NCBI GenBank assembly: GCA_964387845.1
Contig: CAYLXA010000001.1
Location: forward strand, 345,038 to 409,037
Reading direction: 5' to 3'
Length of the DNA stretch: 64,000 nt
Source: an uncultured bacterium
Lineage (GTDB): Bacteria > Omnitrophota > Omnitrophia > Omnitrophales > Abzuiibacteriaceae
In this document: positions 16,316-45,498 of the stretch, piece after piece
How the letters are laid out: every line of letters starts with the position of its first letter
Numbering within the stretch: the first letter of the stretch is position 1
Notes under the pieces: generated by a model
Databases searched by the model: none
Told to the model about the DNA's origin: nothing
Seen by the model: the letters and a program-made list of their open reading frames with translations, nothing else
Made by a program: the position numbers and the translations under genes

Positions 16316-16516
16316 TTAATCGTTTCTTAATTCGCCGCTTGCTACTTTTTGATTATGACGGTCAACCGCTTCATTGTAACCGTCAACCGACTGTTTGGCT
16401 TGATTGGCAATTTCGGGATGGTCTTCAAGATACTTTTCGGAAGCTTTCGCTATCCAAACAACCAAAATAATGACAATTAAAATCGAGATACCGACGCATA
16501 TCCAAAATTGTTTCAT
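16316..16516 (-). CDS. small single-pass membrane protein, hypothetical
   Basis: 66 aa. Transmembrane segment ICVGISILIVIILVVWIA followed by a charged tail. RBS GGAGAG 6 nt upstream. Confidence 0.4.
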   Translation of the reverse strand: MKQFWICVGISILIVIILVVWIAKASEKYLEDHPEIANQAKQSVDGYNEAVDRHNQKVASGELRND

Positions 16517-42154: not shown

Positions 42155-43690
42155 TTAGCGACGTCCTTTATTTCGATTTCTTTTTTTGTCTTTCGTAACT
42201 TTTTCGGGTTTTGAGAGCAATTCAAAATATGGCGAAACAAAAAATAACAAAAAACTTGCAATAATTGTAAATATAAGCTCAGAAAATTTGTCCTTCAGAA
42301 GTCTTCCAAATTCATCAAATGTGAACCATCCCAAATGATTGAGTATCATAAAAATTGTAACCGTAGACAATGCACATCTTAAAAGAAAAGTGAGATATGT
42401 ATTTATAGATCTAAGACTTATTAAAGAAATCGTGAATATGCAAAATCCAATTGTAAGGAACAATATGATTAGGCTCTTTTCTGGAGTGCTTCCCCAGGCA
42501 GTGAGGCAAAACGCTATCATCACGATAGATAAAATAAGAGATTGAAGGCCAATTTCAAAATCAAAATAATATTTTTTAGCTAAAAAATAAATGCAATAAA
42601 TAAAAGAAATGGTTGATAAGATTAAGAAATATAAATTATTTGCATCGAGAATGCTAATATGCGGCTGAGCTGACCAAATTTTCAAAGAAAATTTAATAGT
42701 TAACAATAATGATAAGCTAAAAATTGAGCCAAGAAATGCATAATAGTGCAACTGCTCTAATTTTCTACTTTTGGTTCGTAAAAAGAAATTTTTATACCCC
42801 GTTAAATTACCCCATAAACATGCCAAAAGAAACGGAAGAAAAAAATCGGAATAGAATTTCTTTGATGGAACCAAGAAATCTTTGAATATTGGAATTGAAT
42901 AAACATGAATAAGCAAGAGTGTTAAAAGTGGAAAATTGCTCAACTCATAAATTTTATTTTTCAACTCTGTGTCTTTCACCAAAATATAGAGAATTCCTAA
43001 AATAAACCAATTGATGGTTAATATGCTTGAAAGCATTAGTATAATCATGTCTCCGTACAGTCCAAATCCTCCACAAGCAGAAAAAGCATAAAGAATGGGT
43101 AACAAATAATTGAATATCTTTGTTCCGCTTTCATAGATACTTAATGTGGTTATTTTAAGTCTGATCGTTTTACCTGCATAAAAATTGTCAATCAATTGAT
43201 AAAATCTGCGGAGCAAATATGACGGCAGAAGTAATGGCAATATATAGATAATGCCTTTCACAAATTCCTTATAAATATGCGTTGCAGGCATTTTATCGAT
43301 TTCGGGAAAGTATATTTCATTTGTTAAAACTGTCCAAATCAGAATCCCTACATATACAAACATTTGCGCGAAAGTTTCTATGGATTCGTAGAAATTATTT
43401 CGAAGAAACTGTTCTGAAACCAATTTATATTTTTTTAAGAACACATTCAGTAAACTGCCAACGAGAAAACACAAAGATCGATCAAGAGGAGGGATTACAA
43501 AAAGGAAAACAAAAGAAAGTGTTGCCCACCATTTAATATCTAAACCTATAAAATATACATCTCTAAAGTTATATCTAAAAAAGATAAAAATCTTATTGAA
43601 ATCCAGATATTTTGACGCAAATACATAAAAAACTATAATGGTCAGAACTATTAAATATTTTCTAATCTTGAAGATAACGTTTAGTATCAT
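42155..43690 (-). CDS. large polytopic membrane protein in a low-GC islet (Wzy/O-antigen-polymerase-like topology)
   Basis: 511 aa with at least 12 hydrophobic helices and essentially no soluble domain. Gene GC roughly 28% versus ~50% for the window. Confidence 0.55.
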   Translation of the reverse strand: MILNVIFKIRKYLIVLTIIVFYVFASKYLDFNKIFIFFRYNFRDVYFIGLDIKWWATLSFVFLFVIPPLDRSLCFLVGSLLNVFLKKYKLVSEQFLRNNFYESIETFAQMFVYVGILIWTVLTNEIYFPEIDKMPATHIYKEFVKGIIYILPLLLPSYLLRRFYQLIDNFYAGKTIRLKITTLSIYESGTKIFNYLLPILYAFSACGGFGLYGDMIILMLSSILTINWFILGILYILVKDTELKNKIYELSNFPLLTLLLIHVYSIPIFKDFLVPSKKFYSDFFLPFLLACLWGNLTGYKNFFLRTKSRKLEQLHYYAFLGSIFSLSLLLTIKFSLKIWSAQPHISILDANNLYFLILSTISFIYCIYFLAKKYYFDFEIGLQSLILSIVMIAFCLTAWGSTPEKSLIILFLTIGFCIFTISLISLRSINTYLTFLLRCALSTVTIFMILNHLGWFTFDEFGRLLKDKFSELIFTIIASFLLFFVSPYFELLSKPEKVTKDKKRNRNKGRR

Positions 43691-43706: not shown

Positions 43707-44750
43707 CTAGCTCTTGTCAGTTTCATTAGATTTAGCGCGCGCGATCATTCGCTTGACCTCGGAATTCTGGTTAATTGACATTAATTTTATATCCGGATGA
43801 TCTTGAGCGAATACTCTGAAAATTTCATCCGCAAAAGCTTGGCCGATGGTTGGGACATCGGCAAAATCAAAAATCACGGTCTGAAATAACTCTACCCGCG
43901 CAAGCACTCTTTTGGCCTGAGACCTTGAAATCAGTTTGTCATTCCCATATTGAGCAAGTCTTACAGGAACCACTGTCTTCGTAAAACCATAGTCATCTCC
44001 GGAAGAAAATTTATCGAATACTTTTTTGAGAGTCCGCGAACTATGATTGCTTATTTTCATCCACACAGATGTTCCGCTTCTAAATTCTTTCTCCAAAATC
44101 CAATCTTCGGGACTGCCGAATGTGTGATTAAAATAAACTCCGCCGGATAGAATATCGAAAGAATCAAACATCCTGGATGTAAAGAAAATCCCTTCTCCCG
44201 TATGCCGTTTCGGATCTGTGGTCAGTTTGCCTTTGGAAAGTTCAAGAATTGCATGCCGTTCATCCAGCAATCCTAATTCTGTTTGGATTTTCTTAAAAAT
44301 TCCGATTCCATTATCCAACAAAGCCATTTCTGTAAATGAAGCTGTCTTTTTAATATGAGCAATGACTTCCGAGCCGCCGGAATGGTCAATCACGTTGTTG
44401 AACATTTCGGTAAACCCGTAATGCCAAATATCACGTATATTTTCCGGAATTTCGCTGAATACAGTCGAAAAATCCTTTGTCCATACAATGTCTTCCGTCA
44501 ATTCTTTTGAGACCAAATATTTTTTACGCCATTCCACAATGGGAGCCAATTTGTAAGAACTGTTCCTGGTCTGCCCAATCTGTATCAAGACATGCTCTTG
44601 TAGAAGTTTGTGGAAATGCTTATGAACCGCCTGACGCGTAATCTTAAAATGCTCTGCTGTTCGTTTGGCTATGTCAGACGGATATTTCTCAACGTTTTCT
44701 AGAATAAACCGCCTAACATCTTCTCCTCGAGCCCGAATTCTCATTTGCAA
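43707..44750 (-). CDS. HTH + GHKL-ATPase (anti-sigma/serine-kinase-like) + STAS-like (DUF4325-type) regulatory protein
   Basis: N-terminal winged-HTH-like region (ITRQAVHKHFHKLL). HATPase_c N-box EMFNNVIDHS, G1 box LDNGIGI, G2 box GEGIF. C-terminal VIFDFADVPTIGQAFADEIFRVF resembles the STAS-like DUF4325 domain. Confidence 0.65.
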   Translation of the reverse strand: MQMRIRARGEDVRRFILENVEKYPSDIAKRTAEHFKITRQAVHKHFHKLLQEHVLIQIGQTRNSSYKLAPIVEWRKKYLVSKELTEDIVWTKDFSTVFSEIPENIRDIWHYGFTEMFNNVIDHSGGSEVIAHIKKTASFTEMALLDNGIGIFKKIQTELGLLDERHAILELSKGKLTTDPKRHTGEGIFFTSRMFDSFDILSGGVYFNHTFGSPEDWILEKEFRSGTSVWMKISNHSSRTLKKVFDKFSSGDDYGFTKTVVPVRLAQYGNDKLISRSQAKRVLARVELFQTVIFDFADVPTIGQAFADEIFRVFAQDHPDIKLMSINQNSEVKRMIARAKSNETDKS

Positions 44751-44765
44751 CCTTTCCTATAATCT

Positions 44766-44817
44766 TTGTCAACCTTTGGCAGTCATATTGTCAACCATAA
44801 TACATAGATTGTCAACC
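44766..44817 (-). promoter_or_regulatory. three direct repeats of GGTTGACAA (minus-strand reading) at 21-22 bp spacing upstream of the HTH-GHKL-STAS gene
   Basis: ttgtcaacc at 44766-44774, 44788-44796, 44809-44817. Helical-turn phasing. Each contains a TTGACA -35 hexamer on the gene's strand. Confidence 0.45.
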
Positions 44818-44853
44818 AGGTATTAAAATTATATGGTAAAAATAGATAAGATT

Positions 44854-45498
44854 TTAGGCTATTAAAGAAGCGAGGAGACTGATTTTATCTATCAGAAAAT
44901 CAGGTTTTGAGGATCTAATTTCTTCTAATTTTCCGAAGCCGTAGGTGACGGCGCAAATCGGGATTTTGGCGTTTCGGGCGGTTTCGATGTCGATAGAGCT
45001 GTCGCCGATCAAGACCGCACGCTCGGCCGGAATTTTTAAATCAGCCAGAACTTTAAAGACGCCTTCCGGAGAAGGTTTTTTGGTCCGGACCGTATCGCCG
45101 CCGATTAAGATTGAGAAATATTTCTCAATACCCAAGCCTTTTAAGATCGTCCGCGAAAATCCTTCGGGCTTGTTCGTAATCACGGCCTGTTTTTTATTTT
45201 TGAAATGTTCGAGTGTATCCAAAATGCCCGGATAAAGCTTGGTGTGATCGAGCAGGTGTTCTGAGTAACGTTTCTTGAGGATTTTGAGCGCTTGATCGAA
45301 CTTATCTTCGTGTTCCTTCCCCAACAAGCCCAGTACCAAATTCTGGACGCCCTTGCCCACGCATTCGGCAATTTCAGCGCGCGATTTTTCCTTCAGGCCG
45401 AGCGTCTTGAGCATGAAGTTGCCGCCATTCGCGATGTCTTCTGAAGAATCGATGAGCGTTCCGTCCAAATCCCAAATAATTAAATCAACGGATTTCAT
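44854..45498 (-). CDS. HAD-superfamily phosphatase (phosphoglycolate phosphatase-like)
   Basis: Motif I DLDGTL, GKGV, and a KPSPEG...GDSxID motif III/IV arrangement. Confidence 0.8.
   Translation of the reverse strand: MKSVDLIIWDLDGTLIDSSEDIANGGNFMLKTLGLKEKSRAEIAECVGKGVQNLVLGLLGKEHEDKFDQALKILKKRYSEHLLDHTKLYPGILDTLEHFKNKKQAVITNKPEGFSRTILKGLGIEKYFSILIGGDTVRTKKPSPEGVFKVLADLKIPAERAVLIGDSSIDIETARNAKIPICAVTYGFGKLEEIRSSKPDFLIDKISLLASLIA

Follow-up and report, generated by a model that had tools for sequence, protein, structure and literature searches.

Plasmid iterons are direct repeats situated about 22 bp apart, and parC of plasmid R1 is an autoregulated promoter that is embedded in repeats. Direct repeats also occur at the −35 region in the sites of lambda CII (TTGC-N6-TTGC) and in PhoB boxes, where two half-sites with a period of 10-11 bp replace the −35 element and bring about activation. 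CapK and CapS are regulators of anti-phage operons (Chambers et al., EMBO J 2026, PMC13373217). The domains of CapK run in the order HTH-STAS-GHKL, and its gene invariably precedes that of a separate STAS-wHTH repressor, CapS, which represses its own promoter as well as that of the adjacent immune operon, and additional dimers can be added along the DNA (PMC13373217). The sites of CapS are palindromes of TTAA half-sites, and the CapK/CapS pair usually resides upstream of the immune operon (PMC13373217).

The locus described here lies in a 64-kb window (the whole stretch of DNA that was analysed) and appears to be a repeat operator within the promoter of a regulator gene that belongs to a large, uncharacterised and horizontally mobile family of one-gene regulators. 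The regulator gene occupies 43707-44744 on the minus strand. Its 345-aa product contains a winged HTH at approximately residues 1-75 (coding region 44520-44744, minus strand, as placed by alignments and model secondary structure), a GHKL ATPase domain resembling SpoIIAB and RsbW at approximately 85-235, and a STAS-like DUF4325 domain at approximately 270-340. In Pfam, DUF4325, described there as STAS-like, is matched at 1.3e-13 and HATPase_c_2 is matched weakly. The AlphaFold model (mean pLDDT 75) displays an N-terminal winged HTH of three helices followed by two alpha/beta domains, one central and one C-terminal; the best fold matches of the central domain are SpoIIAB and RsbW, with a target-normalised TM-score of about 0.77 (1til, 1l0o, 6m36). 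The N, G1 and G2 ATP-binding boxes that are a feature of the Bergerat fold are present, and their residues N117, H121, D144, G146, G148 and G183 are invariant in 109 homologues with 40-54% identity to the window protein. The predicted recognition helix of the winged HTH, ITRQAVHKHF, comprises residues 34-43 of the 345-aa protein.

The position of the SpoIIAA phospho-serine, in a by-eye register at the helix start after the FDF strand, is probably occupied in the regulator by a conserved G301-Q302. This register was set from the alignment and the model secondary structure, and on this reading a classical phospho-switch is not evident. A single-sequence PDB search with the regulator found no significant relative, and a family profile matched only generic GHKL and MarR/ArsR winged HTH chains. 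Among NCBIfam models, only an SdpR-like HTH was matched, weakly and far below its cut-off (E = 0.002), and PADLOC has no match for the regulator or for the gene downstream of it. The family comprises more than 8,000 clusters at 90% identity (E <= 1e-5), and 2,773 at 50% identity (E <= 1e-3). The literature on DUF4325 consists of passing mentions only.

Ahead of the regulator gene are three exact copies of the 9-mer GGTTGACAA on the minus strand, at 44817-44809, 44796-44788 and 44774-44766. Read on the plus strand, the 9-mer is TTGTCAACC, with starts at 44766, 44788 and 44809, and the start-to-start distances are 21 and 22 bp. The window contains no other exact copy, and its copies with one mismatch outside the array number 13, versus 14.2 from shuffles. 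GGTTGACAA is also the only 9-mer in the window with three occurrences inside 60 bp; no 9-mer triple within 60 bp appeared across 100 block shuffles, and a rough analytic estimate is about 0.001. A literature search with the motif string returned only sequence strings in papers that were unrelated, as judged by title. The three identical 9-mers reported in the original prediction are thus exact and lie where it had placed them, with chance excluded by the shuffles. Their identity and their 21-22-bp spacing stand, but the array has four units and is not the triple repeat that had been described.

The repeated unit is at least 10 nt long, reading GGTTGACAAT, GGTTGACAAT and GGTTGACAAA in units 1, 2 and 3, and the whole array consists of four head-to-tail units with the consensus TAAGGTTGACAAT, spaced 21, 22 and 22 bp and spanning 44817-44743. 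On the coding (minus) strand the sequence is cct-GGTTGACAAT-ctatgtattat-GGTTGACAAT-atgactgccaaa-GGTTGACAAA-gattataggaaa-GGTTGCAAAT-G. Unit 1, the distal one (GGTTGACAAT, 44808-44817, minus strand), holds TTGACA, the predicted −35 hexamer (44815-44810), and agrees in position and sequence with the first unit of the consensus drawn from 69 aligned orthologous loci. Unit 2 (GGTTGACAAT, 44787-44796, minus strand), 21 bp after unit 1, contributes GACAAT (44792-44787) as the predicted −10 hexamer and is the best conserved unit among the orthologues. Unit 3 (GGTTGACAAA, 44765-44774, minus strand) follows after 22 bp and, for a transcription start near 44780, would occupy about +6 to +15; the final A of the proximal unit is frequent in the orthologues too. 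The degenerate unit 4 (GGTTGCAAAT, 44743-44752, minus strand), a further 22 bp on, shares bases with both the last part of the Shine-Dalgarno sequence and the ATG (44744-44742). A spacing of 21-22 bp corresponds to two helical turns, and all units are therefore presented on one face of the DNA.

No further arrays were found within the window. A weak phased pair on the minus strand at 16347-16388 (GGTTGACGGT and GGTTGACCGT, 21 bp apart, each matching at 8 of 10 positions) was judged coincidental; read in frame, it resembles the end of a short ORF (…SVDGYNEAVDRHN…).

The array coincides with the predicted promoter of the gene. In a promoter scan, units 1 and 2 supply TTGACA and GACAAT, respectively, which are separated by 17 bp and match the sigma-70 consensus at 10 of 12 positions, with GACAAT accounting for 4 of 6 against the −10 consensus. 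This result, a match to the consensus, agrees with the original suggestion that promoter and operator are superimposed. The arrangement follows from the period of the array, since with a repeat every 21-22 bp the −35 hexamer in each unit is separated by 17-18 bp from the −10-like hexamer in the unit that follows. If transcription starts near 44780, the unit centres would lie near −32, −11, +11 and +33. An alternative promoter-like match on the minus strand (44797-44826), which is likewise a consensus match only, pairs TTAATA (44826-44821) with TATTAT (44802-44797) across 18 bp and agrees at 9 of 12 positions; there, unit 1 would be located inside the spacer, unit 2 at the transcription start and the later units downstream.

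Translation most likely begins at the ATG at 44744, yielding 345 aa, rather than at the TTG at 44750, which would yield the 347 aa originally assumed for the regulator. The ATG is preferred because the database protein P0001 has 345 aa and is 100% identical over its full length, and because the Shine-Dalgarno-like AGGAAAGG (44751-44758, minus strand), as read from the sequence, is positioned 6 nt upstream of it. On the other side of the array, an upstream HAD gene stops 36 bp before unit 1. No terminator-like site was found between this gene and the array, and read-through transcription from the HAD gene is therefore possible. An Rfam scan of 44500-45100 returned one chance-level match only (19.6 bits versus a gathering score of 127).

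The array is conserved with the gene across a wide range of bacteria. A protein-similarity scan, restricted to one genome per species, provided 80 orthologous loci at 59-76% identity from Gamma- and Betaproteobacteria, Actinomycetota, Planctomycetota, Nitrospirota, Verrucomicrobiia, Acidobacteriota, Methylomirabilota, FCPU426 and others. The motif is present between −200 and +5 of the gene in all 80, and at least three units, counted with up to two mismatches to GGTTGACAAT, are present in 73; a search for the 9-mer upstream of homologous regulators had been put forward as a check on the original prediction, and it bears the prediction out. Neighbouring units are separated by 21 bp in 81 instances and by 22 bp in 91, and the remaining spacings are mostly 43-44 bp, as though one unit were missing. 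The commonest order of spacings is 21, 22 (then 22), matching that in the window. Motif density is about 16.7 per kb upstream of the gene versus 0.74 per kb elsewhere in the same loci.

Alignment of 69 of the loci on their first unit gives the consensus aagGTTGACAAT-N8-taaggTTGACAATa.ta-N5-taagGTTGaCAAt, in which unit positions carry 1.2-1.9 bits of information and the spacers approximately 0-0.2 bits. Informative units that are joined by free spacers point to selection on the units rather than on the region as a block. Also, the register of the array relative to the start codon is fixed across the orthologues, and the last unit often includes the start codon itself, as GGTTGACAATG, GGTTTACAATG or GGTTGCAAATG. 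The presence of a perfect −35 hexamer in the unit means that some of this conservation could reflect promoter rather than operator function.

Similar comparisons can be extended to more distant members of the family. Scans of viral and prophage-like contigs provided 62 loci at 36-64% identity, with 40 non-redundant upstream regions. In these 40 regions, near-identical 9-mer pairs peak at separations of 21 bp (14 loci) and 22 bp (16 loci), compared with approximately 0.7-1 in shuffles and at most 4 loci at any other spacing. The phasing is thus retained, while the sequence of the unit differs by clade and tracks the predicted recognition helix; units within one locus agree with each other, and they are confined to the upstream array within the 4-7 kb examined per locus. 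The helix RQA(V/I)N.H is accompanied by the unit TTGACAAT, ISLNTVYRYI and close variants (five loci) by (T/A)A(T/A)AGTTAA, and IN(R/Q)NTVH(R/S)YI by TAAA(A/G)CGAATAA. With MTRMGAHKHV the unit is GTTTACAAAAA (GGTTTACAAAAA in one of two loci), with FSRAHISAQV it is AGTAGCAAGT, and with VSRSTAAGYI it is ACA(A/G)TGCA. A unit that changes with the recognition helix indicates the gene's own product as the binding protein, although loci that share a helix type are close relatives, so that part of the co-variation could be due to shared ancestry. In addition, several of the unit types are unlike a −35 element, which argues that the repeats are not merely promoter hexamers.

Within prophage-like contigs, distant members (L255-L277 and L284-L345, from IMG/VR) adjoin integrase, CI-like repressor and other regulator genes. 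A site near integrase or repressor genes is typical of the accessory or immunity genes of temperate phages. One distant prophage homologue (L273, L274) has no match in E. coli genomes or GenBank phages.

Taken together, these comparisons make it likely that the array is the operator of the downstream gene, contained inside that gene's own promoter, and that the protein represses this promoter. We infer the identity of the binding protein from the co-location of gene and array and from the co-variation of unit and helix; the autoregulatory layout that had been proposed for the repeats is, in the same way, supported by orthologue conservation together with this co-variation. The N-terminal winged HTH would bind one unit per protomer, and adjacent protomers would probably bind cooperatively, along one face of the DNA. 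If units 1 and 2 do provide the promoter, full occupancy would cover everything from the −35 and −10 elements through the transcription start to the ribosome-binding site and the ATG, resulting in negative autoregulation, and the layout of the units implies repression under either of the two promoters. The TTGACAA core of the unit is a 7-bp palindrome, and some orthologue units are GGTTGTCAAT; binding may be by a monomer per unit or by another arrangement. On a speculative view drawn from analogy with SpoIIAB-SpoIIAA and CapK-CapS, some signal would act through the GHKL ATPase and the STAS-like domain to adjust the binding of DNA or the oligomerisation of the protein.

Gene and array travel without a fixed partner. 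An all-against-all BLAST of ORFs from 81 loci revealed no conserved neighbour gene, the largest real neighbour family being present at 7 of the 81, and the orientation of neighbours and the gaps to them are variable among loci. A Pfam scan of 145 flanking ORFs found housekeeping families with no enrichment. Even the two closest relatives (80-82% identity) have differing contexts while retaining the four-unit array. Many phyla have the gene and its array as a solitary pair, in chromosomal surroundings that are unrelated from one locus to another and on contigs of up to 4.25 Mb, and a tblastn search for relatives found none in 72,556 plasmid or 50,697 phage records. The lack of a conserved neighbour and the variety of contexts mark gene and array as a self-contained unit that has spread horizontally.

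In a Woeseiaceae MAG (L079, 3800-5230), the regulator and its array are located between two copies of an attC-like element of about 100 bp (…CCTAACG…GCATTGTTAGG); by these flanking elements, the regulator gene there is an integron cassette, which represents one visible route of transfer. An attC-like sequence is also present in the upstream flank of another locus (L053), and a GTTAGRB core (B = C, G or T) is found upstream of the array in 8 of 79 loci. For the window itself, an integron cassette was considered and rejected, as the 36-bp stretch between the HAD gene and unit 1 contains no attC-like element. A reading of the repeats as a transposon end, with repeated sites like those of Tn7 or Mu, was set aside as well, there being no conserved neighbour and no other exact unit in the window.

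Downstream of the regulator, a 511-aa polytopic membrane ORF (42155-43690, minus strand) starts 17 bp past the regulator stop on the same strand. It has no Pfam, NCBIfam or PADLOC match. GC content is 0.29-0.32 in the membrane ORF and about 0.40 in the regulator, compared with 0.45-0.50 in the surroundings, and the two genes together form a low-GC patch, which is probably foreign DNA. The membrane ORF may be co-transcribed with the regulator in the window genome; it is not a conserved neighbour elsewhere.

Arrays of this kind also occur apart from the gene. A reverse scan of metagenomes and viral contigs was conducted with the pattern GGTTGACAAT-N11-12-GGTTGACAA. In metagenomes, 73 of 124 arrays have the gene directly downstream, where 121 of the arrays had at least 150 bp of downstream DNA and three were too short to judge. 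About 47 of the metagenome matches have no family member in the DNA examined, and these non-gene matches include plain tandem repeats and coding repeats. One metagenome contig (L153, 677-943) has an intact array of two units and, after it, a 65-aa ORF that is what an internal deletion has left of the regulator, its N-terminal 19 aa being joined directly to the C-terminal portion of DUF4325.

Viral contigs contain 54 matches (45 distinct) to the same pattern, versus 5 and 1 for two control patterns, with no family gene or HTH homologue within the 5-15 kb examined per contig. Many of these viral arrays have three phased units and a common TAAGG flank, which is not fully included in the search pattern. 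In one phage contig (L218, 3740-3792), the units taaGGTTGACAAT…taaGGTTGACAAA…GGTTGACAAA, spaced 22 and 22 bp, reside between the head-scaffold and major-head genes, and in a second contig (L220) an array is likewise located between scaffold and major-head genes; three further phage contigs (L109, L132 and L160) belong to the same set, and none of the five has a family gene in the contig DNA examined. TAAGG-flanked arrays also precede an ORF of 52-57 aa in three contigs (L202, 5590-5620; L205, 928-958; L223, 5631-5683). This ORF (MDCPGC…) looks like an NrdR-type zinc ribbon, and its ATG is inside the last unit in L202 and L205 and 15 nt downstream in L223. The arrays of L223 and L218 have common spacer sequence, as if the array had moved within a phage group. 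In two contigs (L254, 5588-5618, and L097), a two-unit TAAGG-flanked array is situated 62 bp upstream of a gene for a winged-HTH-like protein of about 92 aa. This protein is unrelated in sequence to the family HTH, and its gene may be another autoregulated gene that uses the same type of unit. Two other matches (L207, 3389-3418, and L214, 5374-5403) are in-frame coding repeats in a large ORF rather than regulatory arrays, with the pattern taaG-GTT-GAC-AAT encoding a repeated (D)KVDN.

The chromosomal protein might, on a tentative and rather unlikely view, act in trans on these look-alike arrays (for example, that of L218 or those of L202, L205 and L223), either as an orphan immunity repressor or as an infection sensor. 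In the first case, a solitary chromosomal gene would silence essential genes of incoming phages. In the second, phage DNA would, as it replicates, draw the repressor away from its own operator by titration, coupling the detection of infection to the GHKL/STAS module.

Look-alike phage arrays that lack the family gene raise the possibility that the units are read by something else and are not purely autoregulatory. The units might be read mainly by another phage or host factor of the same specificity, with the regulator gene being only one of several targets, as the excess of viral matches over controls and the TAAGG flank common to many of them would suggest. We nevertheless regard this as unlikely: the regulator gene is the sole constant companion of the array across phyla, the unit sequence follows the regulator's own recognition helix, and in some prophage-like contigs (L264/L295) a family member is accompanied by this same type of unit. 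Moreover, with 5-15 kb covered per viral contig, a homologue may lie elsewhere in those same phages.

A slightly more doubtful alternative is that the array serves solely as a portable tandem promoter, with the −35 of one unit and the GACAAT of the next driving strong expression of a horizontally transferred gene or a phage gene in any host without a cognate repressor. The period of the array produces a TTGACA-GACAAT spacer of exactly 17-18 bp, and a gene that is found in so many unrelated contexts needs a promoter of its own. Look-alike arrays also precede highly expressed phage genes, such as that for the major head protein, and two of the phage look-alikes run into a consensus TATAAT or TATACT. 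However, the conserved TAAGG flank and the T at unit position 10 have no sigma-70 role, and the units do not stop at the predicted transcription start but reach as far as the ribosome-binding site and the ATG. Units of distant homologues, such as AGTAGCAAGT, TATAGTTAAA and TAAAGCGAATAAC, are phased yet not −35-like. An operator that is built into the promoter and read by the gene's own product remains the preferred explanation for the array.

It is very improbable that the array represents the iterons or centromere-like site of a mobile replicon, with the gene as its initiator or adaptor; an iteron array had been named as one option in the original prediction. Three to five direct repeats about 22 bp apart are the classic iteron layout, and parC of plasmid R1 is likewise an autoregulated promoter within repeats, but the protein here is wHTH-GHKL-STAS-like rather than Rep-, ParB- or ParR-like, and searches of the regulator against Pfam, NCBIfam, fold and PDB profiles found no Rep family. 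The empty tblastn searches of plasmid and phage records also oppose it, as do the location of the loci in large chromosomal contigs among housekeeping genes and the locking of the array register to the start codon. Chance or a recent local duplication without function, for which only the short length of the unit speaks, can be dismissed as exceedingly improbable given the absence of such triples from the 100 shuffles and the conservation of the array across phyla while its spacers vary.

If the operator reading is correct, the family gains a precise candidate DNA target, consisting of the 13-nt unit TAAGGTTGACAAT, a 21/22-bp phasing and an apparent correspondence between helix and site, and this makes binding assays, specificity swaps and regulon searches feasible. 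The locus would also be an unusually clear example of a gene that carries its own promoter and operator across phyla, and the occurrence of the same arrays in phage genomes provides a possible link to phage-host conflict.

Comparison with the described systems places the regulator near several of them. Like iterons and the parC/ParR system of R1, the array consists of identical direct repeats in one orientation, about two turns apart, over the promoter of the adjacent gene. Iterons are typically direct repeats of 17-22 bp about 22 bp apart, and the spacings of 21, 22 and 22 bp in the array agree with this. However, there is no replicon, Rep/Par protein or plasmid relative here, and the position of the array is tied to the start codon of a gene in the chromosome. 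The coincidence of direct repeats with the −35 region is a feature shared with lambda CII and PhoB sites, although the array has a period of 21-22 bp and three to five units, and it continues from the −35 region through the transcription start to the ATG, which, unlike in CII and PhoB, suggests repression. With SpoIIAB-SpoIIAA and RsbW-RsbV, the regulator has in common the central fold, the ATP-binding boxes and a C-terminal domain from a Pfam family that is described as STAS-like; it differs in having no sigma factor, in the fusion of these domains to a DNA-binding domain, and apparently in having G301-Q302 instead of serine at the by-eye phospho-serine position of SpoIIAA.

Among characterised systems, the regulator is closest to CapK/CapS. 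Both comprise HTH, SpoIIAB-like GHKL and STAS domains, and both have a DNA-binding component that represses its own promoter, an activity that in the regulator is predicted. In contrast to CapK/CapS, the regulator is one polypeptide of wHTH-GHKL-STAS-like order with no conserved partner gene in 81 loci, it lacks a conserved downstream operon (its neighbours are housekeeping genes, and in the window neither the regulator nor the gene downstream of it has a PADLOC match), and its sites are direct repeats of TAAGGTTGACAAT at 21-22 bp rather than TTAA palindromes. No chain matched in the PDB searches with the protein and the family profile was named CapK or CapS, which the PDB copy used may lack. 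The regulator thus departs from CapK/CapS in every membership feature that was compared and is not itself a CapK/CapS system. It may, however, work along related lines, in which case it would be a one-polypeptide counterpart of the kinase-repressor logic of CapK/CapS.
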